63,669 bases of DNA, from contig CAYRCU010000003.1 of NCBI GenBank assembly GCA_964422865.1, forward strand, positions 1 through 63,669. Reading direction: 5' to 3'. A program made the position numbers and the translations under genes. The notes under the pieces were generated by a model. It worked only from the letters and a program-made list of their open reading frames with translations. It had not been told where the DNA came from and ran no database searches. The stretch is from an uncultured Gammaproteobacteria bacterium. Its GTDB lineage: Bacteria > Patescibacteriota > Microgenomatia > UBA8517. Shown piece by piece: positions 3,597 through 27,998 of the stretch. Numbering within the stretch: position 1 is the stretch's first letter; each line of letters begins with the position of its first letter.

Positions 3597-5006
3597 ATGT
3601 TTAAAAAGTCATTTGTATCACTTGTTTTTTCAAGCCAGAAAATTCAAATCCTTCAACTGGACTCCAGCAAAAAGAAAATTAAAAGTTTCGGCTCTTTTCC
3701 GCTCCCCAAAGGAACCATCATAAACCGTCAAATTAAAAATCTTCCTCTGCTTACTCAAACAATCTCCACAGCCTGGAAACAGCTTAAGTTAAAAGAAAAA
3801 TCAGTAGGGATCGTAATCCCTGAATTTTCCACATTCACAAAGTCAATTAAACTGCCAAAGCTCTCACCTTCCGAGCTGGACGAAGCCGTCCGTTGGCAGT
3901 CAAAAGACTTTCTTCTCGATTTAAGCCACGACATGGTCCTTGATTGGGAAGTTGTAAAAGAGGAGGATGGTGAGTTCCAAATTCTTGTTGTCGCCATGCA
4001 AAAAGATGCTTTGACACACTACGTTGACGCAACAAGTAGGGCAGGGCTCTATCCGTTGGTCGTGGAAACCCCTTCTCTTTCTCTCACAAGAATCTCGGAT
4101 GGTGATGACAAAGGCAGACTCATCATTTACGTAAATCAGGATGAAACAATCCTTGTCATTTCCCAAGGTGAAACCATTATTGCAAGCTCAGTAGCTACAA
4201 GCAGCTCTCAAAACGAGATAATTAAAACCGCAATTCGGATGCTCAACCATTACAAAAACATCCCCGTATATAGAATAGTGGTGGGGGGAATCGGCATTTC
4301 CCGGGAATTTTTAAAAAATGTCCAAACCTACACCCAACGTCCCACGGAAATGGCAAGTGTAAAGGTAGAAGGCTTAAACCCCGGGCAAATACAAGAATAT
4401 TTAATTCCCCTTTCCCTGCAGCTAAAAAATCCGGCTCAGCCTAAAGATGCGGCAACAATAAACCTTCTCCCAACCGCCTGGGCCAAGCATTACCAAAGTA
4501 AAAAAAACCTCCAAAATTATTGGAGTATCACTCTTTTTACCTCTTTTGCTACCTGGGGTATTTTTCTTGTTACATTTGCGGTTTTTCTAATCTTTGGCCA
4601 AAAAGTAAATAGTCTCAAAAAACAAATATCACAGGACTCGAGCCTTCTGGATAGCAAAGTAATCGAAAGAATTGATGAAGTAAACAGTTTGTCAAAAAGT
4701 GTTTTGACAATTAACGCAGTTACTCTTTCACCTCAGTCTGTTATAAACCAAATCGCCTCAAAAAAACCTTCGGGAATAAGCATAAATCTATATGACCTTA
4801 ATTTGGAAAAAGGGGAATTAATCATAAAGGGAAATTCATCAAACAGGTCATCCCTCCTTGCATTTAAAGATTCACTTCAAAAAATTGAAGGAATCATGGG
4901 CGTAGAGCTTCCGATTACAAATTTTATAAACGAAGAAAACATTGACTTTAATATAAAACTCATCACCAAAAAAGAAGAGAAAAAAACCCCAAAACTCAAA
5001 ATATAA
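3597..5006 (+). CDS. pilM: PilM-like actin-fold protein fused to a PilN-like membrane/periplasmic domain
   Basis: N-terminal PilM-like features (TKSIKLPKLSPSELDEAVRW, MVLDWEVV, AGLYPLVVETPSLSLTR), one TM near aa 310-335, then a PilN-like tail (LIIKGNSSNRSSLLAFKDSL). Confidence 0.7.
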   Translation: MFKKSFVSLVFSSQKIQILQLDSSKKKIKSFGSFPLPKGTIINRQIKNLPLLTQTISTAWKQLKLKEKSVGIVIPEFSTFTKSIKLPKLSPSELDEAVRWQSKDFLLDLSHDMVLDWEVVKEEDGEFQILVVAMQKDALTHYVDATSRAGLYPLVVETPSLSLTRISDGDDKGRLIIYVNQDETILVISQGETIIASSVATSSSQNEIIKTAIRMLNHYKNIPVYRIVVGGIGISREFLKNVQTYTQRPTEMASVKVEGLNPGQIQEYLIPLSLQLKNPAQPKDAATINLLPTAWAKHYQSKKNLQNYWSITLFTSFATWGIFLVTFAVFLIFGQKVNSLKKQISQDSSLLDSKVIERIDEVNSLSKSVLTINAVTLSPQSVINQIASKKPSGISINLYDLNLEKGELIIKGNSSNRSSLLAFKDSLQKIEGIMGVELPITNFINEENIDFNIKLITKKEEKKTPKLKI

Positions 5007-5822: not shown

Positions 5823-5862
5823 GGGAGGGTATACCTCCCGGGGCTTTTGCGAAAGGGGGTGA
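5823..5862 (+). promoter_or_regulatory. pilin 5' leader: GGGAGG/CCTCCC hairpin followed by strong Shine-Dalgarno AAAGGGGGTGA
   Basis: 6-bp stem at 5823-5828/5834-5839 with a 5-nt loop; SD at 5852-5862, 5 nt before ATG 5868. Confidence 0.6.
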
Positions 5863-5867
5863 TAGAA

Positions 5868-6368
5868 ATGACATTTAAGAAAAAAGAGAAATTTACGCTT
5901 ATAAGCAAAGTTCGTGAGGGTTTCACTCTCATCGAGTTGTTGGTTGTTATAGGAATTATTGGTATTCTTGCGGCTATCGTATTGGTCGCTGTAAATCCGG
6001 GAAGACAGTTTGCTCAAGCCAGAGATACTCAACGTCGAAGCGATCTTCTGCAGATCACAAATGCAGTCTATCAATTCGCCGCCGAGCACAATGGTAATTT
6101 GCCGGATACCGATGGTGATGATACAACGAGCAATTTCCCAACGACGGCCACATGTATAGGAACAGATGCAGCATGTTTCAACCTGGCAGCAGCAAGCGAT
6201 GCCGCTGGAACGGAACCTGTTGTAGCAACCTACATTGCCGGAATGCCGATTGATCCATCGACGGGAACAAGCGCGGACACTGGTTACACTATTTATGTGA
6301 ACGCCAACGGTCGCGTAGTTGCATCTGCAGTTGGAGAATTAACAAATCCAATTACAGTGGAAAGGTAA
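5868..6368 (+). CDS. type IV major pilin
   Basis: REG|FTLIELLVVIGIIGILAAIVLVAVNPGRQFAQARDTQRRSD; Cys pair; strong SD and terminator. Start moved from the ORF-track TTG 5847 to ATG 5868. Confidence 0.9.
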   Translation: MTFKKKEKFTLISKVREGFTLIELLVVIGIIGILAAIVLVAVNPGRQFAQARDTQRRSDLLQITNAVYQFAAEHNGNLPDTDGDDTTSNFPTTATCIGTDAACFNLAAASDAAGTEPVVATYIAGMPIDPSTGTSADTGYTIYVNANGRVVASAVGELTNPITVER

Positions 6369-6837: not shown

Positions 6838-7689
6838 ATGTTTACCAGAATTCCAGTTTTTAATAAAACAAAAGTTTACATTGGATCTTTGGGCAACGCC
6901 CGCGATGTCCAAAAAGCTGTAAAAATAATAAAAAATGGAGGCGTAGTGGCCGCTCAAATGAGAAACGTCTTTGGGATATGGATTAAGGGGAACGATGTTA
7001 AAGCTATCAATAAAGTTCACAGCATCAAAGAAAGCGACCCCAATAAACCTATAAGTTGGATGATGCTTAGTAAAGACTTTCTCAAATATATCGACAAAAA
7101 GCTTGTTCACAAAGACCTTGTAGACATAATAAAAGACTCAGAAAAGTTTTCACAGAGAATTGGAGCAATCTGCCATATCAGAGCTCCAATAAAATCTTCA
7201 ACAGTCGGAAACATCCCTTCCTCTCTTTTGAGCACAGAAGACGGTAAATACTACGCGCATAATCTGGATCCGTTTGGACATAAAGGAATAACAAACTTTA
7301 TTAGCAAACTTAACAAGGCAGGAGTTATTTTTGTCGGAGTTACAACTTTAAACAAAAGTGGATGTCCAGAAATCTGCAAAATAAAAGATGCTGTAAAATA
7401 TTGTCGCAAGAAACAGATATCTATGCTGCTTACCGACCCTCAAAACACAAAAAAGAGTGTTTTGGGTTCGTTCACAATTATAGACATTGAGAAAAAAAGT
7501 GTCTTACGTGAGGGCAACATCCCCGCTCAGGTGATTGAAAAAATACTTGGAGTAGATTTTAATAAATTAAACACTAAGTCTTCAAAATTTCCTTTATCTA
7601 ATTTCACACCAATCATTAAACTTGACCTATCTCCAGAAGAGTTAAGAATAGAAATTCTCAATTACATTTCGGAAGACAAAAATATCTAG
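6838..7689 (+). CDS. divergent YrdC/Sua5(TsaC)-like protein
   Basis: GGVVAAQMRNVFG, K...NKPI, TTLNKSG, FTIID and LREG correspond to YrdC-fold motifs, but PTET, KxR and TSAN are substituted. Start moved to ATG 6838, 7 nt after TATACT. Confidence 0.7.
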   Translation: MFTRIPVFNKTKVYIGSLGNARDVQKAVKIIKNGGVVAAQMRNVFGIWIKGNDVKAINKVHSIKESDPNKPISWMMLSKDFLKYIDKKLVHKDLVDIIKDSEKFSQRIGAICHIRAPIKSSTVGNIPSSLLSTEDGKYYAHNLDPFGHKGITNFISKLNKAGVIFVGVTTLNKSGCPEICKIKDAVKYCRKKQISMLLTDPQNTKKSVLGSFTIIDIEKKSVLREGNIPAQVIEKILGVDFNKLNTKSSKFPLSNFTPIIKLDLSPEELRIEILNYISEDKNI

Positions 7690-9485
7690 CAACTCAACCC
7701 CACGATTTGTTTGTACTCTTCTACTGTAGGAATTTTTCCAAGCAACGCGGTAACAGCAACCATAACAGGACTTCCCATGTAAACATCTCCACCCCCCATC
7801 CTGCCTTTATAATTTCGATTAGAAGCGGTGATTGCTGTCTTACCTTCTTCCAATGCAAACCTCCCCTGACCAATACACGGTCCACACACGCTCATATCTG
7901 ACACAATTGCACCCATGTTGCGAAATGTTTGCAGTATTCCTTCCGCTTCCGCCTGCTCGAAGATTTCTCTAGAACTTGGGATGATTACAAATTTAACACC
8001 TTTTGCAACTTTCTCTGCCCCCATCGTTTTTGCGGCACTTCTCAGATCCTCAAGTCCATTAGTGCAAGAAACCAGATAACAGACGTCAACTTGAGGGTGA
8101 TCTGTTAATTCTGACAAGAGAACAACATTTTTTGGGTTTCCAGGCAAAGCCACCACAGGGACCACGTGTTCAAGGTTAAATTCGAACACCTGTTCGTATT
8201 CTGTTTCTTTGTTTACAACACCAAACAGCTTTATTGCCTCATCTTCAGTCATGTTAAACCTGTCCACAAGATATCTAATTCCTGCATCATATGCCTCAGT
8301 TACGGCAATGGGGCAATTGAAAGTTTCGGGGACCATGTTGCAAAGCGCTGCAACCTGATCCAAGCTCATAGACCTAAACCCCTCACCTCCAAATTCAATC
8401 ACAGAACCAGGTTTTACTTCCATTTTCGCAAGCATCAGCTGGGCATCTCTTATAGATAGTCCTTCGGGAATTTGACCTTTGATCTCAATCCTTACGGTTG
8501 GGGGAATAGAAATAGGAATTCTACTTTCTTTCAATGCCGCTGCAAACAAAGTTGATCCAACGGGAATTGCCAAAACAGGTAAAGCACCAAGTGTTGAAGT
8601 ATGTGAGTCCGTAGCAGCAACAACGGGTGAAACGCAAGGATCTATCTCACTAAGCATTACTCTGTGGCAAATTCCTGCTCCCCTTGGGTGGTAGTCTTCA
8701 ACACCCAACTGTTGTGCAATTTGTCTTTGTTTCCTTTGTAGTACACCAACTCTATTGTCTTCTGGATCAAAATGATCCTCATGTAAAGCCAATATTCTTG
8801 AATCGATCTCCGGTGCTCCTTTAATCAAATCAAAAGCAGGTACAGATAAAACAGGATAGGAATAAATTTTGTTTACAGGAAGAGCACATAACATACCCGG
8901 TTCCACAGAAATCGCTTCTAAAGCCCTAGCCATCCTTTGTTCAAAAATTGTCATTTTCTTAGGATCCCTCTCACTGTTTACAATAGGCTCGTCACCGTAT
9001 CGTTCAAGGTATTCTATAAGCCCTCCTACACGAATTATTTGTTGACTCAAATCATCCATTCCTTCAATCAGCATCTCTAGGCTAACCGGGTTTCCAATAG
9101 TAATTTCATCAGCAAGCTTGGGATTGGTACACAACAACAAACCATTATTTACTGCATTTTGAAAAAAAGTTGAGCCAAAACTTGCTGCAATTACAATTTC
9201 AATACCTGCTTGTTGCAGAGCCCAGACTGCCTGTTCACGACTCGATCCAATTCCAAATTCTGCCCCAGCCACCAGAACTTTCACCTCTCTCTTTTTAAGT
9301 TCCCCAGGTTGAAAACCAAACCCAGTCATTGCATATTCACCAAGCTCGTCCGGTTTCAACAGTTCTTTGACCGGAATTATTCCATCTGTAGAAACATTGT
9401 CCAAAACTTGTCCTTCCTTATCTTTTAATACCAACACTTCCTCTGGTTTAAACTTTAATAGTTCGGGAGATCTTTCGGGAGACAT
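7686..9485 (-). CDS. fused small+large subunit 3-isopropylmalate-dehydratase/homoaconitase-type isomerase (LeuD-LeuC order)
   Basis: N-terminal swivel domain (STDGIIP, FGIGSSREQA, SFGSTFFQNAVNNG). C-terminal large subunit (EDH, GICH, TDSHT, SCTNG, CGPC, SNRNYKGRMG) with three [4Fe-4S] Cys. Confidence 0.9.
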   Translation of the reverse strand: MSPERSPELLKFKPEEVLVLKDKEGQVLDNVSTDGIIPVKELLKPDELGEYAMTGFGFQPGELKKREVKVLVAGAEFGIGSSREQAVWALQQAGIEIVIAASFGSTFFQNAVNNGLLLCTNPKLADEITIGNPVSLEMLIEGMDDLSQQIIRVGGLIEYLERYGDEPIVNSERDPKKMTIFEQRMARALEAISVEPGMLCALPVNKIYSYPVLSVPAFDLIKGAPEIDSRILALHEDHFDPEDNRVGVLQRKQRQIAQQLGVEDYHPRGAGICHRVMLSEIDPCVSPVVAATDSHTSTLGALPVLAIPVGSTLFAAALKESRIPISIPPTVRIEIKGQIPEGLSIRDAQLMLAKMEVKPGSVIEFGGEGFRSMSLDQVAALCNMVPETFNCPIAVTEAYDAGIRYLVDRFNMTEDEAIKLFGVVNKETEYEQVFEFNLEHVVPVVALPGNPKNVVLLSELTDHPQVDVCYLVSCTNGLEDLRSAAKTMGAEKVAKGVKFVIIPSSREIFEQAEAEGILQTFRNMGAIVSDMSVCGPCIGQGRFALEEGKTAITASNRNYKGRMGGGDVYMGSPVMVAVTALLGKIPTVEEYKQIVGLSC

Positions 9486-9487
9486 AT

Positions 9488-10849
9488 CTATCTTTCAATA
9501 GACAGTAGTTGAACAAATTCTTTTTCTGTAAGTCGCTCTCCTTTTTGTCTGGCATAGTGAATGATTGCATCTGCTTCCTTATCGGTTACAAGAGATGGAT
9601 CAAACCCAAGATTTGCAGCCAATAATCTTATGGTACTTCTTCCACTCCAATGATTTACATATACTTCATGATCCCGGCCAAACATTTGAGGGTCAGATGC
9701 AGAATATACTTTTCTCTGCATCTCCATCATTTCTCTTGCGATTTCTGTTTCTCCAAGTTCTAAAGCTCTTTGAGCGATATGTAAAGCTTTTGCCATGGCA
9801 TCAGTATGAATTCCAAGTGATGTCTTAAAGGCATTTGAACCAAAAGCGCCATGAGTAGGAATTGGCTCACTTGTAATCTGACTATAAATTACAAGTGTTT
9901 TCCATAAGTGTTTTAATTTCCAGGGAACATCTTCAACCTGACCGTTTTCAAGCATTATCTCAACGGCGTTTAACACAACTGTTTCAAGTGGGGTATTTCC
10001 GGCTCGTTCACCAATACCCCACGGAACCGTGTGAATTCTTGTCGCCCCATTTGCAATGGCAACCTTAGCATTTTCCGTAGCGTTCCCGAGATCCCTGTGT
10101 CCATGCCATTCAATAGGTATATTTTCTAGACCAAGTTCGTCCAATACATCTCTTGTGAACTTGACTATGGCCTCAACCCCGGGTGCCCTAGCAATCCCGA
10201 CAGTATCGGCAATACAAATCGCGCTCGCCCCATTCTCCACTTGTGTCTGAATAATCTCCCTCCAAAAATCTGGAGGTGTTTGGGTAGTATGTTCAGTTCC
10301 ACCAATTACTCCAATGCCTTTATTCACTACCTCCCTCACTGCCCAACCAAGTTGCCGCAATACCTGTTCTTTTTTCCAGCCTTGTACAAGAAGTCTTTGG
10401 GGAGAAGTACCCATAAAGACAATCGCATTCAAATTAGGATTTTTCTCTCTGCAATTTGCGACCCAACTGATCGATTCCTCACTTGCTAAACACAAGACAA
10501 TAGGTGTCACATTAGGATAATCCCCATTCATAACTTCAAGGAGCTTCTTGAGTCTCCTGTCAACCTCGTTACCATTTTCACCCGTATAAATTCCCACAGT
10601 CACCCTATCAACTCCAAATCTTTGCAGAGCGTCAATATATCTCAATTCCTCCTCAGTGGTAGGAAGATGCGAAATACCATGTTTTCCGTCTCTCAAGGCT
10701 TCACAAACAAGAACTAAATCTTGAATTTGCTCTGGTGAAGGTTCAACAATAACCGGTCTGCAAGGATCTTCACGTCTATTCCAATTGTAATTAACGGGAA
10801 TCTCCCCGTTCTTTAGTTGCCAAACGACCTCCGTGTGTTCAACTCCCAT
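9488..10849 (-). CDS. DRE-TIM metallolyase, isopropylmalate/homocitrate/citramalate synthase family, without C-terminal regulatory domain
   Basis: LRDG, CIADTVG, HGHRDLG.A.EN, GIGERAGN.PLE, G.NAF...GIH motifs. ATG 10849 preferred over the track TTG 10864. Confidence 0.88.
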   Translation of the reverse strand: MGVEHTEVVWQLKNGEIPVNYNWNRREDPCRPVIVEPSPEQIQDLVLVCEALRDGKHGISHLPTTEEELRYIDALQRFGVDRVTVGIYTGENGNEVDRRLKKLLEVMNGDYPNVTPIVLCLASEESISWVANCREKNPNLNAIVFMGTSPQRLLVQGWKKEQVLRQLGWAVREVVNKGIGVIGGTEHTTQTPPDFWREIIQTQVENGASAICIADTVGIARAPGVEAIVKFTRDVLDELGLENIPIEWHGHRDLGNATENAKVAIANGATRIHTVPWGIGERAGNTPLETVVLNAVEIMLENGQVEDVPWKLKHLWKTLVIYSQITSEPIPTHGAFGSNAFKTSLGIHTDAMAKALHIAQRALELGETEIAREMMEMQRKVYSASDPQMFGRDHEVYVNHWSGRSTIRLLAANLGFDPSLVTDKEADAIIHYARQKGERLTEKEFVQLLSIER

Positions 10850-10901
10850 AAATAAATAATTCAACGCGATGTGTTATCATTTTTTATATACTAATTTTTT
10901 G

Positions 10902-12290
10902 ATGCAGACCTATAATACCACACCCAAAAAAAGGGAAACAATAGAATCACTTTGGCGCTTGATGCATGTTGTTCTTGACACTCTTGACTTCGATCAGGTG
11001 GTCCAAAAAGTAGTAGATAGTGTACTAATGGAACTAGGTTACCTGGAGCTTGGCTACAGCATTGTTGTTCTTATACTTTATGATGAAAAGACAAACTCTC
11101 TAAAAAGAATTTCAATTTCAAGAACACAAAAAGCCAAAAAAGCTCTCGAAGTAACTCCGGTCCCTTTCGAAGACATTATTATTCCCTTGTCCGCTTATGA
11201 AAACTTGTGTACTCGCGCATTCCTGGATGGTAAATCTTATTCAACCCATGATTGGAGAGATATTCTCTTTCCAGCATACACAGTAGAAAATGCAAGAAAA
11301 GTTCAGAGTATTGTGGGAATAAAAACCAGTATGGTTTATCCGATTATCTATCAAGGAAAATCTCAAGGCGTAATTATCTTTAGTATGGTTAAGGATGAAA
11401 AGCAAGTAACAGAAGAAGAAAAAGATCTCATAAAAAGCTTTACAGATTTAGTTGGCTTGTCAGTTCAAAACGCCAAACTTTTTACTGCACTTGAACATTC
11501 ATCCAACTTACTCAAAAAAGCAAATGAACGATTAAAAGTCCTGGACGCCAGGAAAAACGAGTTTATATCCATTGCCGCTCACGAACTGCGCGCTCCTCTT
11601 ACGGCAGTCAAAGGGTATGTATCTATGATAATAGACGGAGATGTGGGGGTAATTACTCCTCAAGCTCAAGAATTCCTCGAGGACGTGCTGGTTTCCTCCA
11701 ATCGCATGATACGGTTGGTAAACAATCTCTTGGATGTTTCAAGAATCGAGGAAAATAAAATTCTATATGCCGAAGATTATTTCAAACTGTCAGATATTGT
11801 AAAGAGCGTTTATAGTGAGTTTAAATTAGAAGCAAGAAGAAAAAATCTTAATTTCAAAATTGAAATCCCGGAAAATATTGTTGATAGTGTTTATGTAGAT
11901 CAAGATAGGCTTCACGAAGTATTGGTTAATTTTATAAGTAACGCCCTCAAATACACAACAGATGGTGGAGTAACTCTTAAACTTTCAAACCCCAAAGTAG
12001 GAATAATCCGCGCGGAAGTTACAGATACGGGTCCCGGAATTTCAAAGGAAGAACAGGAAAAACTATTCGCCAAGTTCTATAGAGTCAAATCACATATTGG
12101 CAAAACAGTGGGAAGTGGTTTAGGATTATACATTAGCAAGCTTTTGATAACAAAGTTCGGTGGCCAGATTGGTCTCATCTCAGAGCCCGGTAAAGGTTCA
12201 ACATTCTGGTTCGAATTACCGATCAAAAATAAAAGGCAAGATGAGTCAAACACAGTCTCAGAATCAACCAATTCAACCCAGCCGGCCTAG
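10902..12290 (+). CDS. soluble GAF-domain sensor histidine kinase
   Basis: GAF-like N-terminus; H-box FISIAAHELRAPL; N-box NFISNALKYT; DTGPGI; GSGLGL; GSTFWF. No clear TM. ATG 10902 preferred. Confidence 0.92.
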   Translation: MQTYNTTPKKRETIESLWRLMHVVLDTLDFDQVVQKVVDSVLMELGYLELGYSIVVLILYDEKTNSLKRISISRTQKAKKALEVTPVPFEDIIIPLSAYENLCTRAFLDGKSYSTHDWRDILFPAYTVENARKVQSIVGIKTSMVYPIIYQGKSQGVIIFSMVKDEKQVTEEEKDLIKSFTDLVGLSVQNAKLFTALEHSSNLLKKANERLKVLDARKNEFISIAAHELRAPLTAVKGYVSMIIDGDVGVITPQAQEFLEDVLVSSNRMIRLVNNLLDVSRIEENKILYAEDYFKLSDIVKSVYSEFKLEARRKNLNFKIEIPENIVDSVYVDQDRLHEVLVNFISNALKYTTDGGVTLKLSNPKVGIIRAEVTDTGPGISKEEQEKLFAKFYRVKSHIGKTVGSGLGLYISKLLITKFGGQIGLISEPGKGSTFWFELPIKNKRQDESNTVSESTNSTQPA

Positions 12291-12681
12291 TGCCGTACCT
12301 GACACACAGAAAAAACCTTCGGTCCTTATCGTAGAAGATGATCCGTTGTTGGTAAAAATGTACGGAGCAAAACTAAGGTCAGACGGCTTTATTGTCTATT
12401 CAGCATTTGACGGAGAGCAAGGCTTGAAACTGGCATTAGAAAAGAAACCTTCAGCAATTTTACTTGACGTGATGATGCCGAAGATGTCCGGTGTTGATTT
12501 TCTGACCCGTATCAGACAGGATCCTTGGGGAAAATCTGTCGCGGTGCTGGTTCTTTCAAATCTTTCCCAAGATGAGGAAATAAAAAAAGCCCTTGCCTTG
12601 GGCGCTAAAGAATATCTTACAAAAGCGAATGTAACACCTGCTCAAGTTACGGAAAAAATCAAAAGCTATCTTAAAAAATGA
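12241..12681 (+). CDS. single-domain response regulator (receiver only)
   Basis: VLIVEDD, LLDVMMP (phospho-Asp), VLS, YLTKAN; no output domain. Start placed at ATG 12241. Confidence 0.9.
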   Translation: MSQTQSQNQPIQPSRPSAVPDTQKKPSVLIVEDDPLLVKMYGAKLRSDGFIVYSAFDGEQGLKLALEKKPSAILLDVMMPKMSGVDFLTRIRQDPWGKSVAVLVLSNLSQDEEIKKALALGAKEYLTKANVTPAQVTEKIKSYLKK

Positions 12682-13604
12682 GTCCCGCCCTGCTGCTAAT
12701 AGATAAAACAGTTCACGCTTTCTTGCCTCGCGAATCAAACGATCACAAAGCCCGTGCTCTTCAAGTGCCGGGACTGATTATTTTTCTCCTTGTGATTGTT
12801 CTTGTGCAAATGGTATTAAATTTTATTACAACCACGGACGTAAAAGTCTTAGGCTACGCGGCAAACATTTCTCCAAGAGAAGTAATAAGACTAACCAACG
12901 AAAAACGTCTTGAAAATAACGTTCACGCACTCGAATTAAGCCCAATTCTTACGGAAGCGGCACGCCTCAAAGGCAGTGACATGCTTGAGCGTGATTATTG
13001 GGCACACAATGCGCCTGACGGCACAGAGCCGTGGGTATTTTTTGTTAATGCCGGCTACAAATATCGCTATGCAGGTGAAAATTTGGCTCGGGATTTCTCA
13101 AATCCCAAAGATGCCGTCGAGGCATGGATGGCCTCTCCGAGCCACAGAGAAAATCTGCTCTCGGACAGGTATCGTGAGATCGGCATAGCTGTCGTGGAAG
13201 GGGATCTCAATGGCGTAGACACAACAATAATAGTTCAATTTTTTGGAACTCTTGCCGTGGACACGGTTCCGGTAGTTCCCGTTGCGGCAGCAAAAAGTAT
13301 TGAATCTACACCCGCACCCACTCCGTCTCCGCTTGCCAAACCGGCCACAGAAGTTTTTTCACAAACCCAGCAAATTGCTCAGCGCTCCTCCACACAAAGC
13401 CAAAAGTTAATCTCTCCGTTTCAGGTTACAAAATTCATCTCACTTGGCGTAATAGCAATTTTAAGCATAACCTTAGTCATTGATGGGCTTATAATCTATC
13501 AGAAAAAAATCACCCGGGTTTCCGGGAAAACTTTTGCACACTTTTCGTTTATTGGGATGATTTTTGCAATCATTCTCATCGCAAAAGCAGGACAAATTTT
13601 TTAA
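12678..13604 (+). CDS. membrane-anchored CAP (SCP/Tpx-1/PR-1) domain protein
   Basis: YWAHNAPDG, AGENLA, WMASPSHRENLL, EIGIAV; N-terminal TM, P/T/S-rich linker and two C-terminal TMs. Confidence 0.88.
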   Translation: MSPALLLIDKTVHAFLPRESNDHKARALQVPGLIIFLLVIVLVQMVLNFITTTDVKVLGYAANISPREVIRLTNEKRLENNVHALELSPILTEAARLKGSDMLERDYWAHNAPDGTEPWVFFVNAGYKYRYAGENLARDFSNPKDAVEAWMASPSHRENLLSDRYREIGIAVVEGDLNGVDTTIIVQFFGTLAVDTVPVVPVAAAKSIESTPAPTPSPLAKPATEVFSQTQQIAQRSSTQSQKLISPFQVTKFISLGVIAILSITLVIDGLIIYQKKITRVSGKTFAHFSFIGMIFAIILIAKAGQIF

Positions 13605-13942: not shown

Positions 13943-14440
13943 ATGACAAGCTCAAACGGAAAGTTTATAAGCCCCACACGCGGCCCGATGTCCGTGTCGG
14001 GTATGATAAAAGAGATTTCAAATTTTGTGGAAGAAGAGCCTGACAATTTTTACAGACTTGTTATAGGCACAGATTCCCAGGCACACAGAACAAACGGCAA
14101 ATCTCAATGTGATTTTGTGACGGCAATTGTTATCCACAGGCAGGGCAAGGGTGCTCGTTATTTTTGGAAGAAGGAAAAACACAAACCCCTGCGGCTCAGG
14201 GACAAAATCTACACGGAAACACAAAAATCCCTGGACACCGCCCAAAAAATAGTGCCATCCTTAAGAAAAGCAGTCACGCCTGCAAAATATGATCTTGAAA
14301 TCCATATTGATGTAGGCTCTCTTGGGCCAACCAGAGAGATGATTAAGGAAGTTGTGGGAATGGTTAACGGAAATGGGTTTGTAGCAAAAACGAAGCCGGA
14401 GAGTTGGGGGGCATCTTCAGTCGCCGATAAGCATGCCTAA
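13943..14440 (+). CDS. ribonuclease H-like YkuK (DUF458) family protein
   Basis: LVIGTDSQ, FVTAIVIHR.GKGARYF, KIYTETQKSL, LEIHIDVG, KPESWGASSVADKH. Confidence 0.85.
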   Translation: MTSSNGKFISPTRGPMSVSGMIKEISNFVEEEPDNFYRLVIGTDSQAHRTNGKSQCDFVTAIVIHRQGKGARYFWKKEKHKPLRLRDKIYTETQKSLDTAQKIVPSLRKAVTPAKYDLEIHIDVGSLGPTREMIKEVVGMVNGNGFVAKTKPESWGASSVADKHA

Positions 14441-16316: not shown

Positions 16317-17062
16317 ATGATACGGTACATCGAATCTTTCGTAAGACCATTTATCAGAGAATCCCCACCGGAATTACTCCAAAGGTGCGATGATGATCTT
16401 GTCAACGAAAAAATCGATAGCGGGTTGGATATGGATTATTTGCTCGATCATGTTCGTCTGTTCAAAAACAGAGAAAAAACAACAAGAGAAGCCTCAAGGT
16501 CACTCGCCCGTTTAGTCATTGAACTGGAAGATCAAATACCACACTATGACACGATAATTAGTGACGACGTGAGCGGCAGATTAGTGTCACTTTTCTTAAG
16601 AGAGGTTATAAAACCTACTTTGTGGCAAGCGGCAGGCATCATGACCAAAGAATCCATGAAGCAATAGATGAATTCATAGCAAGAAAAAAGCCTTCCATGG
16701 GAAAAGTATTGCTGGTTACTGAATTCATAGAAACTGGTGCCAGCATTAATTCAATAGCTGAAAGGCTAGACAGGCAAGACATTGATTTTGACATTGCGTC
16801 GGCGTCAGTTTCCAGCCGTTTTTTCAACCACAAGACTAATAAAGGGTTAAGAAGTTTATTAGAAAGACTTAGATACGGAACAGTGGGTAAGGCGGGACTA
16901 GCTTTTTACTTTTCTCAATCTTCCACAGGTGTCATAAAAGATCTTCAATCCGGAAGCGCCCACCCGGCAAAAAGAGAAGGTGCCTGCCCGCGAACTCTAA
17001 GCGAAGCAAGACAAGACATGAAATTAATGGCCACAGAAATTTTAAAGCTAATTCAAGAATAA
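16317..17062 (+). pseudogene. phosphoribosyltransferase-like gene split by a frameshift near 16610
   Basis: Frame 1: MIRYIESF...DTIISDDVSGRLVSLFLREVI. Frame -1 continues KTYFVASGR...KVLLVTEFIETGAS (PRPP-loop-like). One extra A in the AAAA run at 16610-16613 would join them. Confidence 0.6.
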
Positions 17063-17197
17063 AGTTATTTTGGATACTTCAACATTGAAATGAAAACGCA
17101 AAGTGGTCTTTGAATCGCAGCTGTCACTTGGAAATTATGGATGTTCATTATCAAACAACATCTGTACTACTGCCAAGTTAAAGTTTAAAATCTATGT

Positions 17198-18085
17198 GTG
17201 AAAATCGATTTTATCGGTATAGGTGCAGAAAAATGTGCCACCAGATGGTTAGGAAAATGCCTCAGTGAGCATCCCGAGATCTGTTTAGGCAGGGAAAATG
17301 GTGGAAGTGAGCTGTTTTTCTTTAATGAATATGATCCCCATTTGTTAAAGATAAAAAACTCCAAGTATTATTGGGGCCTCAAGTGGTATTTAAAGCAATT
17401 TGACCACTGTCCGGCAAAGTCGGTCAAAGGAGAAATATCTCCAACATATTTATATAGCAAAGAAAGTGTAAAGCGAATAATAAAACATTTCCCGGAGGCC
17501 AAAATATTGGTTTGTTTGAGAGATCCAACCAAAAGAGCCCTTTCACAATACTTACATGACATAAAAATTGGAATTACGCTGCCGCTTGGTTTTGAAAGAG
17601 CCTTGAAAAAAAATAAAACTTACATAGAAAAAGGAAAATACTACAAATACTTAAAAGAATATTTGCATGCGTTTGGGAGTAAAAGAGTACATGTAATCCT
17701 GGTTGATGAAATTGAAAAAAACCCCAAAAAGGTTGTGAAAGAAGTATATAAATTTTTAAATCTAAAAAACACTGAATTTGAGCCTAAAAATTTACACAAA
17801 CGCACAAATGTGGCAAAAACGACCAAATTTCCTTTGTTAAATTACATCCTAATTCAAACAGAATATTTAATTAAAAGATACAATCTTTGGTGGCTACTGA
17901 AAATCTCAGACAATTTAGGTATCAGAAAGTGTGCCTTAAATGTTAGCCATAATATCAATACAAAACCATTCGAAAAATATCCCAAAATGAAAAGCAAGAC
18001 ACGAACATGGTTAAAGAGAAAGTATTTGAAGGATATAAATCAACTGGAAAAATTAATTAAAAAAGATTTAAGCACCTGGAAATAG
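17198..18085 (+). CDS. PAPS-dependent sulfotransferase domain protein
   Basis: DFIGIGAEKCATRWL (5'-PSB-like), KGEISPTY, LRDPTKRALSQY (3'-PB-like). GTG start. Confidence 0.9.
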   Translation: MKIDFIGIGAEKCATRWLGKCLSEHPEICLGRENGGSELFFFNEYDPHLLKIKNSKYYWGLKWYLKQFDHCPAKSVKGEISPTYLYSKESVKRIIKHFPEAKILVCLRDPTKRALSQYLHDIKIGITLPLGFERALKKNKTYIEKGKYYKYLKEYLHAFGSKRVHVILVDEIEKNPKKVVKEVYKFLNLKNTEFEPKNLHKRTNVAKTTKFPLLNYILIQTEYLIKRYNLWWLLKISDNLGIRKCALNVSHNINTKPFEKYPKMKSKTRTWLKRKYLKDINQLEKLIKKDLSTWK

Positions 18086-19731
18086 TGAAAAAAACATATT
18101 CGTATATATCCATATTGTTACCTGTTTTTTTAGTATTGCTATTGTTGCTTAGTTTTTTTAGAAATATAAAATATCCGCTTTTATGGAACGATGAGGCAAC
18201 AACAGCAGTATTTGCAAGAAGTGTATTAAGAAATGGTTACCCAAAGGCACACGACGAAAAAAATAATCTCAATCCCACAATTCCGGATGATAAAAGTCTT
18301 TGTATAAAAGAAGAAATAGATGCCTATCTGTGTATTGGCTGGGGACACTACTACCTGGCAGCACCCTTTGTCTATCTGGCCGACAAAACGAACGATCTAT
18401 ACACAAAAACAGCCCTTGTTAGATTCCCTTTCTCCTTACTGGCTTTTATGGCAATATTAATGTTTCCGTTAATTGCGTTAAAAGAAATTAAGTCCTTCTC
18501 GGGTAAAATACTTTTTTACAGTGGATTCTTGGTTTTTGAGCTGCTTTCGGTGTTTTTAGCACTTCACGCTTCTCAGGTGCGTTATTATTCTTTACTTTTG
18601 TTTTTGTCCGCTTTACTGATACTTATCTATTCTCGCTACAGAATTTTTGGAGGCAATAAACATCTTTATATTGTCTTAGTACCAATACTTTTAGTCTTAG
18701 TCTTTATAAGTTATTACCCTGCTTACGCGGTATTCATTATTACATTTATCTTGCAGGAGTTTTTGTTTTTTATGACAAAAAAGAACAAATTAAAAACTGG
18801 GCTTGCCCATGTGGGTCTAACACTGTCAAGTTTAATAATCACTCTTCCCTTAATGATATTCTTTGAAACTTTTAAAATCTCCAAAGAGTATTCAAATTAC
18901 TTAACAACAAATTTATATGGAGGAAAATATACACTCACCATGTATATAAAAAATCTCCTTTCGGTCTATGAATTTTTCTTCAAACAAGAATTCCTTTTTG
19001 TGCTTTTCATCCTAAAGATGCTATTGCTTTGGATCTTGTACAAAAAAGGAAAAGATAAAATAATAAAACTGCTTAGGGAAAACAAGTCCTTACAGATCTC
19101 AAATCTCCTAACCTTATTTTTTATAAACTACATTTTTATAGTGTCCCGAATTCCCTACCTCTTCACGCGTTATTTCTATATCGAGCAGCCCATTTTGTCC
19201 TTGATCATTTTAATAGACACAGTCTTAATAATAAATTTAACAAAACCCAAAAAAGACGCACTCAAAGCCTATGCAATTTATTTTGCTTCAATCCTAATTT
19301 TGTCAGGTGCATACAAAATACAAACTTTAAGATTATATTTCTATGAATTGACACACACATATAAAGGCCCACTGGATTATGCGATTGGTTATATACATAA
19401 AAACTATGAAGATCCAGAAAAATTAATTATTGCAACAAATTATGAAGAGCTTGCCTTTATTTTCTATCTAAACAGCAGGGTAATAATAGGCGCAGTTGGA
19501 AACGAACTGGAAAAGGACATGAAAATTGAACCGGACATTATTATCCCTCGAAAAGACTGGAAAAATATAGAATATTTAGAAGATTTGCTGGCCAAGGGGA
19601 CATATGAAAAAGTTTCTTTCCCAATTTATGATTACAAATTTAACAACATCTCCGAGCTTCAGTGGCACCTGTTTAAGACAAAGTATGCAACCAGCGATGA
19701 CGAAAAACTGACAATATACTTAAAGAAATGA
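18085..19731 (+). CDS. GT-C superfamily (ArnT/PMT-like) membrane glycosyltransferase
   Basis: TM1 then PLLWNDEA acidic loop, R.PF, QVRYYSL; many TMs and a soluble C-terminal domain. Confidence 0.7.
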   Translation: MKKTYSYISILLPVFLVLLLLLSFFRNIKYPLLWNDEATTAVFARSVLRNGYPKAHDEKNNLNPTIPDDKSLCIKEEIDAYLCIGWGHYYLAAPFVYLADKTNDLYTKTALVRFPFSLLAFMAILMFPLIALKEIKSFSGKILFYSGFLVFELLSVFLALHASQVRYYSLLLFLSALLILIYSRYRIFGGNKHLYIVLVPILLVLVFISYYPAYAVFIITFILQEFLFFMTKKNKLKTGLAHVGLTLSSLIITLPLMIFFETFKISKEYSNYLTTNLYGGKYTLTMYIKNLLSVYEFFFKQEFLFVLFILKMLLLWILYKKGKDKIIKLLRENKSLQISNLLTLFFINYIFIVSRIPYLFTRYFYIEQPILSLIILIDTVLIINLTKPKKDALKAYAIYFASILILSGAYKIQTLRLYFYELTHTYKGPLDYAIGYIHKNYEDPEKLIIATNYEELAFIFYLNSRVIIGAVGNELEKDMKIEPDIIIPRKDWKNIEYLEDLLAKGTYEKVSFPIYDYKFNNISELQWHLFKTKYATSDDEKLTIYLKK

Positions 19732-20504
19732 AAATCATAATTCTCATCCCTACTTACAATGAAAAAGAAAACATAGGAGATCTTCTGAAAGATATTATTA
19801 AAAAAATAAACAAAATAAAAAAACACAAATTCGAAGTGTTAATTGTTGACAGCAGATCCAAAGACGGAACAGTAGAAATAATAAAAAAATTCCAAAAGAA
19901 CCACAAAAACATACACTTAATTTTTGATAACAAAGAGGGATTGGGAAAAGCCATGATTCAGGGCTATTTACATGCAATAAAATCACTTAAAGCAGACGCC
20001 GTGATAACAAATGAAGCTGATTTTGCATTTGATTTCAAGCACCTTCCGTATATGATAAAAAGCCTTGAGGGGGGGAATGATGTAGTGGTTGGCTCCCGCC
20101 ATGTGGGCGTAGGAAAAACAGAAGGCTGGACTACAACAAGAATTATAAATCACTGGGTAGCAAACACTCTTTTTGCAACTTGGGTAGCGGGGGTACACGA
20201 AGTATACGACCACAACGGCGCTTTCCGCGCGATTAGAGTAAAAGGCATATTGGATAAAATCGACTTCAAAAATATCCCCGCAAAGGGCTTTGGTTTCTTT
20301 TTTTATTTTCTGTATGAACTTACAAAGCTAACGGATAAATTTGATGAATTTCCGGTAACCTACCGTTTTCGCAAAAAAGGGGAGTCCAAAGTATCTTTCA
20401 ATAAAAAATATATCAAAAGATATATACGCGACATTGCCGAATACATTTTTCTCGCTCTCTTGATAAGATTAAATAAGCTAACCTCATGGATCCAAAAAAA
20501 ATAA
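19728..20504 (+). CDS. GT2 polyprenol-phosphate-sugar synthase (DPM1-like)
   Basis: IPTYNEKEN, VDSRSKDGT, GLGKA, atypical NEADFAFD in place of DxD, VVVGSRH. Confidence 0.82.
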   Translation: MKIIILIPTYNEKENIGDLLKDIIKKINKIKKHKFEVLIVDSRSKDGTVEIIKKFQKNHKNIHLIFDNKEGLGKAMIQGYLHAIKSLKADAVITNEADFAFDFKHLPYMIKSLEGGNDVVVGSRHVGVGKTEGWTTTRIINHWVANTLFATWVAGVHEVYDHNGAFRAIRVKGILDKIDFKNIPAKGFGFFFYFLYELTKLTDKFDEFPVTYRFRKKGESKVSFNKKYIKRYIRDIAEYIFLALLIRLNKLTSWIQKK

Positions 20505-22036
20505 AATCCAAAGATTTAATTTATCTGGCGGCACTACTTATTCTCTTTGTAGCCTTAAGGTTCAATAGCTTCTCCGCTCCCTTCGAAAGAGACGAAGGAG
20601 AATACGCATATTCAGCATGGATCATGAGGAATGGAAGCATGCCCTATAAAAACGCCTTCCTTCAAAAGCCTCCCCTGATTATCTACACCTACATTTTCTC
20701 CCAGTTTCTTTCATCCACCGCTCTCTGGCCTCCGCGCCTCTTGGCCTCGATTTTCACACTTATTTCCACCTTTCTGGTGGCTCTCATTGCAAAATCTATC
20801 TTCGGAAAAAAGTACTTTTGGCCAACCGCATTGGTTTTTACTCCCATGATAATGCTTCCAACTCTCATGCCTTTTAGCGCCAACACGGAAATTTTCATGC
20901 TCACGCCTCTCCTGGGGTTTTTATATCTATACACAACTTCTCACCCAAATCCCAAAGCCTCTCGCCTTTTTCTTGCAGGAATTCTTTCCTCCCTTGCACT
21001 CCTATATAAACCGATTTGTCTGTATGTAATTGTTTTTATTTCTCTTCTTTGGGGCCGAAGCATCCTTAAATCTCAAAAAAGCCTACTTCATTCAGTTAAA
21101 CTACTCCTTTTTTTACTTTTAGGAGGAGCCGTGACTACACTCATAATTTTAGCTCCGTTTCTTCTTACCCAAACATTCAAAGACCTTTTTCAACAGGTAA
21201 TTGTTTTTAACGGATACTACGCCAAGTCCTGGGGTATTGGTCTTGGTGGAATCATCTTCCAGTTTTCAAGGATCCTAAAGTATTACTGGCCATTGGCTAT
21301 TGTTTCTCTTATCTTCTTCATAAACCCGCCCAAAAAATGGTGGCTCCCCTTGGGCCTTACATTCTCATCAATCCTTGCTATTTACCAAAGCTACATAGGT
21401 CACTATTATCTTCTTCTTATGCCTTTCTGGTCACTTATACTCTCCTACTCATTAGTCAAACTTTCAGGTTTCAAGGGACTGGCAAAAAGAAACGTTAAAC
21501 CCGAAGCATTAGTTGCCGTCGCTGTCATTACAATGCTTTTTCCCATCCGAGCCCAATTCACACATACCCCGGAAGAGCTAAATCTTTGGGTCTATGGTAC
21601 CGCAAACCCATTTTACGAAGCACCCCTTGTCGCCCGAAAACTTTCAGAAATCACAACCCCAACAGATCCGGTTTTTATTGCCGGATCCGAGCCCGAAATC
21701 CTTTTCTATGCAAAACGAATAAGTACGTCAAAATTTGTCATAACCTATCCCTTAATAATTGATACTCCAAAAAGGCTTGACTACCAAAAAGAAGCAATTC
21801 AGGAGCTAAAAAACAAGCCCCCTCAAGCAATAGTCCTTTCCCGACGTCAACACTCAGGCCTTTGGAATGAAGATAGCCCAAGAGAATTTATTGACTATCT
21901 TTTAAAAAGTATTAATAAAGATTACAATTTAATAGGATCATATGTTTGGATCAGAAACAAAGGGTATTGGCTTGAAGATCCGAAAGAAGAAGAATTAGCC
22001 GCAAGCAGTTTGATTTTATACAAAAAAAATGATTGA
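20486..22036 (+). CDS. GT-C (ArnT/PMT-like) glycosyltransferase
   Basis: PFERDEGEYAY, QKPPLI, ANTEIF, LYKP; polytopic with C-terminal soluble domain. Confidence 0.8.
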   Translation: MDPKKIKSKDLIYLAALLILFVALRFNSFSAPFERDEGEYAYSAWIMRNGSMPYKNAFLQKPPLIIYTYIFSQFLSSTALWPPRLLASIFTLISTFLVALIAKSIFGKKYFWPTALVFTPMIMLPTLMPFSANTEIFMLTPLLGFLYLYTTSHPNPKASRLFLAGILSSLALLYKPICLYVIVFISLLWGRSILKSQKSLLHSVKLLLFLLLGGAVTTLIILAPFLLTQTFKDLFQQVIVFNGYYAKSWGIGLGGIIFQFSRILKYYWPLAIVSLIFFINPPKKWWLPLGLTFSSILAIYQSYIGHYYLLLMPFWSLILSYSLVKLSGFKGLAKRNVKPEALVAVAVITMLFPIRAQFTHTPEELNLWVYGTANPFYEAPLVARKLSEITTPTDPVFIAGSEPEILFYAKRISTSKFVITYPLIIDTPKRLDYQKEAIQELKNKPPQAIVLSRRQHSGLWNEDSPREFIDYLLKSINKDYNLIGSYVWIRNKGYWLEDPKEEELAASSLILYKKND

Positions 22037-23642: not shown

Positions 23643-23651
23643 TATTAAACC

Positions 23652-24809
23652 ATGGCTGATTTGCCCAAAATTGTGATCATAATGCCCACCTACAATGAGG
23701 CAAAAAATATTGGTCCCATGATAGAGGAGCTTGTGGGAAAGGTATTTCCCAAAATAAAAGGTGCTGACATGCACCTTCTTATTGTTGACGATAATTCTCC
23801 GGATGGCACGGGAAGCATTGTCAATAAATATATGGAAAAATTCAAAAATCTACACCTTCTTTCAGGTCAAAAACAAAAAGAAGGGCTCGGTAAGGCATAT
23901 GCCAGAGGCATGAAGCATGCTATGCATAAGCTCAGGGCAGATGCAGTCATGGAAATGGACAGCGATTTTCAACACAATCCCGAGGAAGTCCCCGCAATGG
24001 TTAAGGCTTATCTCGATGGGGCAGACTACGTAATAGGAGCACGTTACATAAAAGGCGGCTCAATCCCCAAGGCCTGGCCGCTTTCAAGAAAGATGATGAG
24101 TTTTTTCGGGAACCTCTTTATTAGAATTGTTCTTATTAAACCCAAATTGCACGATCTTACAACAGGTTTCCGTTTAACAAAAGTAAAGGGTGTTTTAGAT
24201 CAAATCGACCTGGACAACTTGATGGAGATTAAGCGCTTTGCCTACAAAGTTGATCTTCTCAATCAAACAGTAGCTCTCTCAAAAAAAGTTACAGAAGTGC
24301 CCATTCACTTTGGTGAGCGGAAGATGGAAACAAGCAAATTCAATCTCAAGGAACTTGTTGCAACCTTTAAAGTAGCAATTGTTATTAGATTAAAGGAGTC
24401 TCAAAGATTTATTAAATTCGGCACAGTCGGGTTCATAGGATATCTTGTAAACGCAATAAGCCTCCACTACATAGCAAGAACAGGTGTCCCGGAAGCCGTC
24501 GCCTGGGCAGGCTCCACCGAATTGGCAATCATCTCAAATTTCACCCTGAATAATATCTGGACATTCAAAAGTGAAAAAATATCGGGAATAGGGAAACTTG
24601 TAAATAAATTCATTCAATTTAACGGCACTTCTCTGGGCGCTCTTGTTATCCAAACCGTTGCGGGGTCCATCGGCGTATCAATGCTGGGGCAAGAATACAG
24701 GCAAATCCTCCTTCCGTTTATAGTTGTCTTCTTGGTTCTTCCCTATAACTATCTTGCCTACAACCTTGTTATTTGGCGCACGTGGCGTCTTCCGGGAAAA
24801 CGCAAGTAA
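23652..24809 (+). CDS. GT2 polyprenol-phosphate-sugar synthase fused to a C-terminal GtrA-like flippase domain
   Basis: MPTYNEA, VDDNSPDGT, GLGKAY, MDSDFQHNP, then RFIKFGTVG...SNFTLNNIWTF...KFIQF 4-TM GtrA signature. Confidence 0.88.
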   Translation: MADLPKIVIIMPTYNEAKNIGPMIEELVGKVFPKIKGADMHLLIVDDNSPDGTGSIVNKYMEKFKNLHLLSGQKQKEGLGKAYARGMKHAMHKLRADAVMEMDSDFQHNPEEVPAMVKAYLDGADYVIGARYIKGGSIPKAWPLSRKMMSFFGNLFIRIVLIKPKLHDLTTGFRLTKVKGVLDQIDLDNLMEIKRFAYKVDLLNQTVALSKKVTEVPIHFGERKMETSKFNLKELVATFKVAIVIRLKESQRFIKFGTVGFIGYLVNAISLHYIARTGVPEAVAWAGSTELAIISNFTLNNIWTFKSEKISGIGKLVNKFIQFNGTSLGALVIQTVAGSIGVSMLGQEYRQILLPFIVVFLVLPYNYLAYNLVIWRTWRLPGKRK

Positions 24810-24878
24810 GATTTTATACGGCTCTTGCCCACAAAACGGGACTGTTTGAGAGACATTAGTATTGTATAATATGGGTTC

Positions 24879-25968: not shown

Positions 25969-26018
25969 ACCGGGAAATATACACCAACTACGCTCTCAAG
26001 CTCTCTCAACCTTCAAAA

Positions 26019-27176: not shown

Positions 27177-27231
27177 ATGAATCCATATTATATCTTTAGA
27201 AGATAAATACTCAAGTCTTGTGGTGAACATA

Positions 27232-27240: not shown

Positions 27241-27246
27241 TTCTCT

Positions 27247-27963: not shown

Positions 27964-27998
27964 AGCAATATTTTGATGTGTCATTCTGATTAAATGCC

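Follow-up and report, generated by a model that had tools for sequence, protein, structure and literature searches.

The synthases that begin 2-oxoacid chain extension, LeuA, CimA, NifV/LysS and methylthioalkylmalate (MAM) synthase, have in common an HMGL-like barrel with post-barrel subdomains, an Arg/Asp/His-x-His site, a Glu, a GIH His and a Tyr, and here we describe a divergent enzyme of this kind, encoded beside a single-chain isomerase in a 63.7-kb stretch of DNA (contig CAYRCU010000003.1; hereafter the window, which is the entire contig of its assembly). The isomerases that work with such synthases, LeuCD and HacAB, consist of two subunits, and the fungal Leu1 is ordered large-then-small; AcnB is an aconitase with the swivel domain in front. 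LeuA-like synthases may also serve side pathways, as in the HphA/HphCD/HphB homologation cassettes. On the regulatory side, alpha-isopropylmalate is the co-inducer of yeast Leu3, the GAF domain of CodY binds branched-chain amino acids, and in Streptomyces the redox-sensing SenS/SenR system has HbpS as its accessory.

Where LeuA, CimA and homocitrate synthase (HCS) have LRDGEQ, SPIH, ED..R and HxHND, the family of the window synthase has LRDGLH, APSR, TEHTTQTPPDF and WHGHRD; it also forms a separate clade and carries a DFNWN-containing extension and a post-GIH insertion. The substrate class, probably aliphatic, would be common to LeuA and the window synthase, but the latter lacks the LeuA_dimer domain. 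The isomerase shares all [4Fe-4S] ligands and catalytic residues with LeuCD/HacAB, and its small domain is of the archaeal, LeuD-like type, but it is one chain with the small domain first, and in place of their YLRT/YLVM-type specificity loop its family has a variable, L-L-T-D-D-like loop. Its predicted model suggests the domain order 4-1-2-3 of AcnB, from which it differs in lacking the HEAT-like N-terminal domain (~20 residues precede the swivel), in being 20% identical and in scoring 103-132 bits against the NCBIfam acnB models, with cutoffs of 782-1287 (TIGR00117, 103 versus 1287). Unlike homologation and non-ribosomal peptide synthetase (NRPS) clusters, which hold LeuB, LeuCD, an aminotransferase and an NRPS, the related loci of the candidate phyla radiation (CPR) have neither LeuB nor NRPS and do have a two-component system.

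Judged from sequence, the synthase is non-canonical and an orphan at the level of its locus, lying outside the LeuA, CimA and NifV equivalog families as the isomerase lies outside those of LeuC and LeuD. The reading we favour, with a confidence of about even, is that the two are an active isopropylmalate-type synthase and isomerase with which a leucine-type chain extension of 2-oxoacids would begin, the synthase taking the first step and the isomerase the second, and the downstream fate being left open. The two genes and their parts are as follows.

9488..10849 (-), synthase gene, 453 aa from the gene caller's start at ATG 10849 (the mechanical open reading frame runs to 10864, from a TTG)
10676..10696 (-), LRDGKHG motif in the synthase translation, at the end of barrel strand 1
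7686..9485 (-), isomerase gene, 599 aa
8991..9428 (-), N-terminal LeuD-like swivel domain of the isomerase, with GSSREQA, about aa 20-165
7728..8954 (-), C-terminal LeuC-like large domains of the isomerase, with the three cluster cysteines, aa 178-586

The synthase and its family

An earlier note on this DNA had described a two-gene pair with a 2-bp gap, in which the synthase carries LRDGKHG, has an N-terminal extension and lacks a C-terminal allosteric domain, and each of these descriptions was borne out. The junction of the two genes reads TAG-AT-ATG, the motif translates from the positions listed above, and about 50 residues precede the barrel, including a DFNWN motif that is kept in relatives. 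Pfam finds an HMGL-like domain (PF00682, aa 56-302, E 3e-35) and a weak HCS_D2 match in the synthase and does not find the leucine-binding allosteric domain LeuA_dimer (PF08502), the protein ending after subdomain II.

Against the NCBIfam models of isopropylmalate synthase (IPMS), NifV, archaeal LEU1, LysS and CimA the synthase scores 39-115 bits, with cutoffs of 413-950. It falls below the equivalog cutoffs of LeuA (NF002085, 115.5 versus 517 bits; TIGR00973, 110 versus 599), of homocitrate synthase (TIGR02660, 115 versus 463) and of CimA (TIGR00977, 52.5 versus 450; NF042433, 39 versus 950). A homologue search covering 5.8 billion proteins returned a family of about 95 proteins with 36-49% identity and E-values down to 1e-83, followed by a sharp gap in E-value. 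The next matches past the gap are three CPR proteins named 'LeuA family' (29-32% identity) and a methyltransferase-fused protein of 751 aa, at E 1e-39 to 1e-31, and ordinary NifV and LeuA proteins first appear at 1e-20 or weaker. Members are mainly from CPR bacteria, with a few unannotated proteins of Micromonospora and Streptomyces at 41-43% identity.

In a neighbour-joining tree with a small reference set (NifV, a Methanopyrus HCS-like protein and LeuA), the family was monophyletic in 100/100 bootstrap replicates, and the family together with its three CPR sister proteins was split from the references, again at 100/100. The earlier note had proposed a phylogeny against the known synthases, and its outcome agrees with the idea of a distinct enzyme: the synthase stands outside the LeuA, CimA, NifV/HCS and AksA groups, in its own clade, with about 115 bits against cutoffs of 413-748. 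The actinomycete synthases nest among the CPR members, a CPR-only clade being recovered in 0/100 replicates, which suggests transfer of a CPR-type synthase gene into actinomycetes.

Across 24 aligned synthases R53, D54, E186, H249, H251, H348 (of the GIH motif) and Y382 are invariant, and E186, H348 and Y382 align with the corresponding positions of IPMS and HCS. We take R53, D54 and H249/H251 to be the metal and 2-oxoacid site, with the Arg of LRDG binding substrate and the Asp binding metal, and E186, the GIH H348 and the post-barrel Y382 to be the catalytic set of the Claisen branch, presumably with no counterpart in the aldolase and lyase members of the superfamily. The protein has in this way all that marks a Claisen-condensing DRE-TIM enzyme, namely the Arg-Asp of strand 1, the His-x-His ligands, the Glu, the GIH His and the Tyr. 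Its AlphaFold2 (AF2) model is of high confidence (pLDDT 92, pTM 0.91), and in a Foldseek search with this model MAM synthase, HCS, IPMS and LeuA outrank aldolases and lyases.

The sequence motifs of the barrel are those of the family rather than of the window, with one exception. The Lys of LRDGKHG is found only in the window among the 24 aligned members, motif position 4 being otherwise Leu; at position 5 the CPR members mostly carry His (two have Gln or Gly) and the actinomycete ones Gln. Most CPR proteins of the family thereby read LRDGLHG and those of actinomycetes LRDGLQG, with R-D-G invariant. APSR, TEHTTQTPPDF and WHGH(R)D are likewise specific to the family (the Arg of HGHRD being variable), as is the insertion of about 20 residues after the GIH motif.

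The residues expected to line the substrate pocket look aliphatic. Leu119 occupies the position of the strand-3 His of HCS, the Arg (-4) and Ser/Thr (-2) that precede the catalytic Glu in HCS are absent, with I/G in place of R/T (VIGATE, against VRFTAE in the HCS of S. acidocaldarius), and small or hydrophobic residues stand where IPMS and citramalate synthase line their alkyl pocket. The roles of the HCS His, Arg and Ser/Thr as binders of the distal carboxylate, and the pocket positions themselves, are transferred by motif correspondence from the published IPMS, citramalate synthase and HCS structures.

The single-chain isomerase

The earlier note had also recognised a fused isomerase, and the fusion is real, but it had missed that the order of the domains is circularly permuted. 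Pfam places Aconitase_C at aa 64-117 and Aconitase at aa 239-583, that is, small then large. The swivel domain matches TIGR02087 (LEUD_arch) over aa 29-160 at E 1.5e-28, with 99.6 bits against a cutoff of 109, and the small subunits 2pkp, 3vba and 1v7l of the PDB match aa 19-165; the large domains match NF001614 over aa 178-586. PRK00402 reaches 247 bits, under its cutoff of 385, and all NCBIfam scores of this protein are under cutoff. The closest solved relative by sequence is HacA of M. jannaschii (4kp2, E 2e-51), and the isopropylmalate isomerase (IPMI) large subunit is matched at E 5e-41.

In an alignment of 18 isomerase sequences the motifs DSHT, SCTNG, CxxC, NRN..GR and GSSRE are invariant, and alignments to 4kp2 and 4nqy match these residues. 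The three cluster cysteines, DSHT, NRN..GR and the catalytic Ser of GSSRE place the protein on the IPMI/homoaconitase branch. Its small-domain specificity loop is variable across the family and contains no conserved basic residue.

The AF2 model (pLDDT 90, pTM 0.90) is one compact body. Among solved structures searched with Foldseek, E. coli AcnB (1l5j) is the only one that aligns over the whole of this predicted model (TMq 0.78, 681 columns), and against M. jannaschii HacA the model gives TMt 0.90 at 29% identity.

About 35 CPR proteins make up the isomerase family, at 39-49% identity and mostly 636-693 aa long. The window protein is a trimmed member: most aligned CPR orthologues have an N-terminal extension of about 55 residues, a Gly-rich loop ahead of GICH and a C-terminal tail of some 30 residues, all three of which it lacks, and still it has every invariant residue. 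An unfused relative (P0152) stands alone, with no synthase beside it.

The next relatives are Clostridia proteins of about 600 aa, 28-30% identical over 93% of the length and with the same domain order. One such permuted gene, in Clostridium sp. AN503 (8001..9794 of locus L089; L-numbers denote related loci), is accompanied by a 373-aa Aconitase-only gene, and its cluster also holds pyruvate:ferredoxin oxidoreductase (PFOR), phosphotransacetylase (PTA), acetate kinase, a 2-hydroxycarboxylate transporter and the alpha subunit of oxaloacetate decarboxylase. This cluster of gut Clostridia seems to encode an as yet uncharacterised pathway for degrading a hydroxy- or tricarboxylate.

Gene neighbourhoods of the pair

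Related loci were gathered as six long CPR loci by exact-protein look-up and 27 more by a metagenome scan with a back-translated TEHTTQTPP pattern. The synthase is carried by 25 of these 27; the total is 32 synthase loci, about 24 of them distinct, and their partner genes were called by hidden Markov model scans and by unbiased clustering of all neighbouring open reading frames. A contig scan with the synthase-family alignment was dominated by a generic GERAGN pattern and brought up ordinary LeuA/NifV loci, with Streptomyces sp. NPDC059919 (L006) as the sole true member. The synthase and isomerase homologues come mostly from CPR bacteria (Roizman-, Gottesman- and Falkowbacteria), consistent with a CPR origin of the window, whose sequence was present in DNA sequencing runs only in a search of sequencing runs. 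A literature search found no description of this module in CPR bacteria.

The genes recruited next to the synthase are of the leucine or branched-chain type. A class IV aminotransferase, brought out by the unbiased clustering, adjoins the synthase in three CPR lineages (L094/L108, L112/L117 and L096) and is a bona fide IlvE (NF005146, 365 bits versus a cutoff of 279; TIGR01122, 315 versus 246); in L096 its gene stands before the fused isomerase. The module of L087 neighbours a bona fide valine-pyruvate transaminase, AvtA (537 bits, cutoff 467), so that IlvE or AvtA stands beside the synthase in four CPR lineages in all, and the isomerase genes of L087 are bona fide LeuC (612 versus 560) and LeuD (181 versus 116). 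In the actinomycetes Micromonospora mirobrigensis (L001, FMCX01000001.1) and Streptomyces (L006), the synthase lies between an aminotransferase and LeuC/LeuD and adjoins a bona fide LeuB (421 versus 353). Two different branched-chain transaminases, LeuCD and, in actinomycetes, LeuB have been recruited to this family independently.

The actinomycete cluster also encodes an NRPS, an MbtH protein, an enterochelin-esterase homologue and an MMPL exporter. It resembles the homologation cassettes in that a LeuA-like synthase serves a side pathway, and suggests that the captured CPR-type synthase was put to making an NRPS building block. Stachelhaus-type codes read by hand from the NRPS adenylation domains beside the actinomycete synthases gave one Ser-like and two unassignable hydrophobic specificities, too ambiguous to name the amino acid.

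With the synthase below curated cutoffs and its barrel motifs divergent, we inferred its substrate from context and not from sequence identity. The aliphatic-looking pocket, the lack of a distal-carboxylate residue and the leucine or branched-chain partner genes together make a leucine-type chemistry most likely.

The absence of a dehydrogenase and an aminotransferase near the pair, pointed out in the earlier note, holds for the whole 63.7-kb contig and, as regards the dehydrogenase, well beyond it. No Iso_dh-type dehydrogenase came out of Pfam scans of all open reading frames of at least 120 aa in the contig, a bona fide LeuB used as query in tblastn and phmmer gave no match there, and no gene of the LeuB/IDH type was seen in about 24 CPR loci. 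The further neighbours in L096, L094, L088 and L087 contain no dehydrogenase. A VKOR-DHO_dh fusion beside LeuCD in L087, considered as a substitute, was rejected, being a bona fide quinone-dependent dihydroorotate dehydrogenase; this protein, with its N-terminal VKOR membrane domain, is encoded at 16450..17772 (-) of L087, in the same operon as LeuC and LeuD.

What does accompany the pair, in a larger module conserved among CPR bacteria, is a two-component system and a YrdC-like protein, most often with an HbpS-like protein as well; the window encodes the following of these.

10869..12290 (+), GAF-HisKA-HATPase histidine kinase, divergent from the synthase; its true start is possibly ATG 10902
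12241..12681 (+), receiver-only (CheY-like) response regulator, 3' of the kinase; the open reading frame opens at 12160 and the likely start is ATG 12241
6838..7689 (+), YrdC/Sua5-fold paralogue, 283 aa as called, convergent with the isomerase; the open reading frame opens at 6715

The kinase has the Pfam domains GAF_2, GAF, HisKA and HATPase_c, and no convincing transmembrane segment was found in it. Its orthologue adjoins the synthase in every one of the 19 distinct loci that extend past the synthase start, with 42-57% identity between loci, and the adjacency survives rearrangement in L096, L097 and L107 and is found in the sister clade as well (L092). The two genes are usually divergent, and the gap between them was measured in five other loci, at 99 bp in L005 and 42-47 bp in the remaining four; a promoter and terminator scan of this short gap gave nothing convincing, and comparison of the intergenic regions of six loci revealed no obvious common motif. 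By comparison, the fused-type isomerase is present in 14 distinct loci, with split LeuC/LeuD standing in for it in L087 and L106, directly 3' of the synthase in the latter. The response regulator, with Response_reg as its sole Pfam domain, occurs in 16 related loci.

Orthologues of the YrdC-like protein are found in 16 loci, besides divergent copies, and in the window the stop codons of this gene and of the isomerase overlap in the palindrome CTAG (7686..7689). The protein matches PF01300 and TIGR00057 weakly and, as a profile, the YrdC domains of TsaC, Sua5 and HypF in the PDB; some 80 inserted residues contain the conserved motifs CHxRxPI and DPxGH, and IKESD stands where TsaC has KxR. We rejected its identification as a housekeeping TsaC, because KxR is not kept and because a canonical Sua5/YrdC gene is present besides it in L086.

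A small HbpS-like protein (PF03928), 50-76% identical between loci, is likewise encoded in 16 loci, for example at these positions.

L003, 13980..14384, HbpS-like gene
L005, 12422..12829, HbpS-like gene
L086, 14593..15048, HbpS-like gene
L087, 13626..14027, HbpS-like gene
L088, 12359..12766, HbpS-like gene

A possible analogy for an HbpS-like protein encoded with a kinase and a regulator is HbpS-SenS-SenR, from which the CPR loci differ in that the CPR protein has no signal peptide and is cytoplasmic, in that no HbpS-like gene was found anywhere in the 63.7-kb window, and in that the regulator lacks a DNA-binding domain.

Pilus genes lie near the module in the window, namely a PilM-like fusion (3597..5006) and a pilin (5847..6368), and in other lineages a PilB-type ATPase (L005, L087 and L094) and PilC lie directly 3' of the regulator. 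Such flanking genes suggest that the two-component system may act on pili.

Directly 3' of the regulator in the window are a CAP/SCP-domain protein with a C-terminal membrane segment (12678..13604, +) and an RNase H-like PF04308 protein (13943..14440, +), for neither of which a link to the module was seen in other loci. Much of the remaining contig, about 17200..62400, is a very large envelope-glycosylation island with no fewer than 12 paralogous membrane glycosyltransferases of the PMT_2/PMT (GT-C) type, each about 500-560 aa long, some 10 GT2 and one GT4 enzymes, a Wzx/MurJ-like flippase, a YfhO protein, a sulfotransferase (17198..18085) and a methyltransferase.

The proposed role of the pair and its rivals

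In the leucine-type reading, an aliphatic 2-oxoacid, most likely branched-chain and at best guess 2-ketoisovalerate, would be drawn from scavenged amino acids by transamination through IlvE or AvtA. The synthase, acting as a metal-dependent Claisen enzyme, would condense it with acetyl-CoA to a 2-alkylmalate, and the permuted single-chain [4Fe-4S] hydro-lyase would dehydrate and rehydrate this to the 3-alkylmalate, provided that flux runs in this direction. The oxidative decarboxylation that would complete a conversion of valine to leucine is not encoded at the locus and might fall to an unlinked LeuB, to a malic-enzyme-like or a non-homologous enzyme, or might never occur. The GAF kinase and CheY-like regulator may sense or control the pathway: the missing leucine-binding domain of the synthase and its strict pairing with the kinase point to control through the two-component system.

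Several observations weigh against this reading and keep our confidence in it at the level given above. APSR, TEHTTQTPPDF and WHGHRD depart from all characterised enzymes, and the synthase scores lie far below every curated LeuA and CimA cutoff; the pocket was mapped by motif correspondence with IPMS, citramalate synthase and HCS structures and not by superposition. Five lineages have no isomerase adjoining the synthase, and neither the contig nor about 24 distinct CPR loci contain an IDH/LeuB-family gene, though leu genes usually cluster. The Pfam scans of open reading frames of at least 120 aa found no aminotransferase on the contig either. Finally, the general view of CPR bacteria is that they do not make their own amino acids.

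Alternatively, the same enzymes may form a pathway that ends at the 2- or 3-alkylmalate, or at an unsaturated intermediate, and this compound may be an intracellular signal read by the GAF kinase, a possibility that we hold tentatively and consider clearly less likely than the leucine-type chain extension. The feedback-insensitive synthase, with or without the isomerase, would then report the joint availability of acetyl-CoA and a branched-chain oxoacid derived from scavenged amino acids, and the kinase would pass this on through the CheY-like regulator to type IV pili or back to the enzymes, the synthase among them. The possible analogy is with Leu3 and CodY, where a leucine-pathway intermediate or one of the branched-chain amino acids is read by a regulator, with GAF as the sensor. 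Such a circuit fits the pairing of kinase and synthase at all 19 informative loci, across gaps of 42-99 bp and through rearrangement, a soluble kinase with a GAF domain, a regulator without a DNA-binding output domain, the absence of LeuB from all CPR loci and of a feedback domain from the synthase, and the pilus genes, PilB-type ATPase or others, found on either side of this unit in the window as well as in several lineages. The earlier note had thought of a signal among other products, and this idea stays in play only on account of the strictly conserved adjoining kinase, which that note had not seen. However, binding of an alkylmalate by the GAF domain is conjectural, IlvE and AvtA as neighbours are just as compatible with biosynthesis or salvage, the kinase could be a mere syntenic neighbour that regulates pili, and the loci without an isomerase leave the supposed signal compound undefined. 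In a variant, which we weigh jointly with the circuit and no more highly, the conserved YrdC-like and HbpS-like proteins would substitute for LeuB through non-homologous chemistry.

The remaining explanations seem to us less probable still. The earlier note had suggested condensation of acetyl-CoA with a non-standard 2-oxoacid, which would be a polar or charged one, into a special-purpose hydroxy-acid, for instance a chelator or a part of the envelope, taking the altered LRDGKHG motif as its sign, and indeed basic and polar residues are added or shifted in the barrel motifs (the Arg of APSR, the His and Gln of TEHTTQ, often the Arg of HGHRD, and the Lys and His of LRDGKHG), no curated model reaches its cutoff and the contig also carries a large glycosylation island. 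We find this improbable: the Lys is peculiar to the window in a family with LRDGLHG or LRDGLQG, the Arg of HGHRD varies, the pocket looks aliphatic, with neither the Arg/Ser(Thr) pair nor the other carboxylate-binding residues of HCS, and the small domain of the isomerase has no conserved extra basic residue for a distal carboxylate. The neighbourhoods of homologues, which that note had proposed to inspect, hold IlvE, AvtA, LeuC and LeuD in CPR bacteria and LeuB, LeuC and LeuD in actinomycetes, every one a leucine- or branched-chain-type gene, and clustering of the neighbouring open reading frames showed no conserved gene for making or using an unusual oxoacid. A Re-citrate synthase with an aconitase, converting oxaloacetate to isocitrate as an oxidative stub of the tricarboxylic acid cycle towards 2-oxoglutarate and glutamate, is somewhat more improbable again. 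Re-citrate synthases are homologues of HCS and IPMS, of about the size of this synthase and without a regulatory domain, so that size and domain content would fit, as would the AcnB domain order of the isomerase and the nearest non-CPR relatives of the latter, which stand beside a 2-hydroxycarboxylate transporter, an oxaloacetate decarboxylase subunit, PFOR, PTA and acetate kinase. Yet the loci contain no isocitrate dehydrogenase, neither enzyme has a conserved basic residue for an extra carboxylate, the isomerase is IPMI/homoaconitase-like and not aconitase-like by sequence and is replaced by LeuCD in L087 and L106, and branched-chain aminotransferases are the recurrent neighbours. That the two proteins are no longer enzymes and instead serve the two-component system as accessory or sensor subunits, for instance as an Fe-S sensor of redox state or iron in the manner of apo-aconitase, would agree with their obligate association with the kinase and the HbpS-like protein and with the trimming of the window isomerase at both ends relative to its family. 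We regard it as very unlikely, for every catalytic and ligand residue is invariant among proteins that share 36-49% (synthase) and 39-49% (CPR isomerase) identity with those of the window, and such invariance at low identity is a signature of selection on catalysis.

Whichever of these outcomes holds, the isomerase is an uncharacterised, AcnB-like circular permutation of an isopropylmalate-isomerase/homoaconitase-type enzyme, and the occurrence of the synthase family in actinomycete NRPS clusters offers a cultivable route to its biochemistry. For the CPR bacteria themselves, it means that a putative leucine-type synthase-isomerase pair has been kept across many lineages thought to be nearly devoid of amino-acid biosynthesis, and that at their loci it is always tied to one soluble sensor kinase and never to a third pathway enzyme. 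If the pair does serve to turn valine into leucine, this would revise what these episymbionts need from their hosts and would point to a missing, probably non-canonical dehydrogenase; if the alkylmalate is instead the true end point, it would give an example from bacteria of a pathway intermediate produced for signalling alone.

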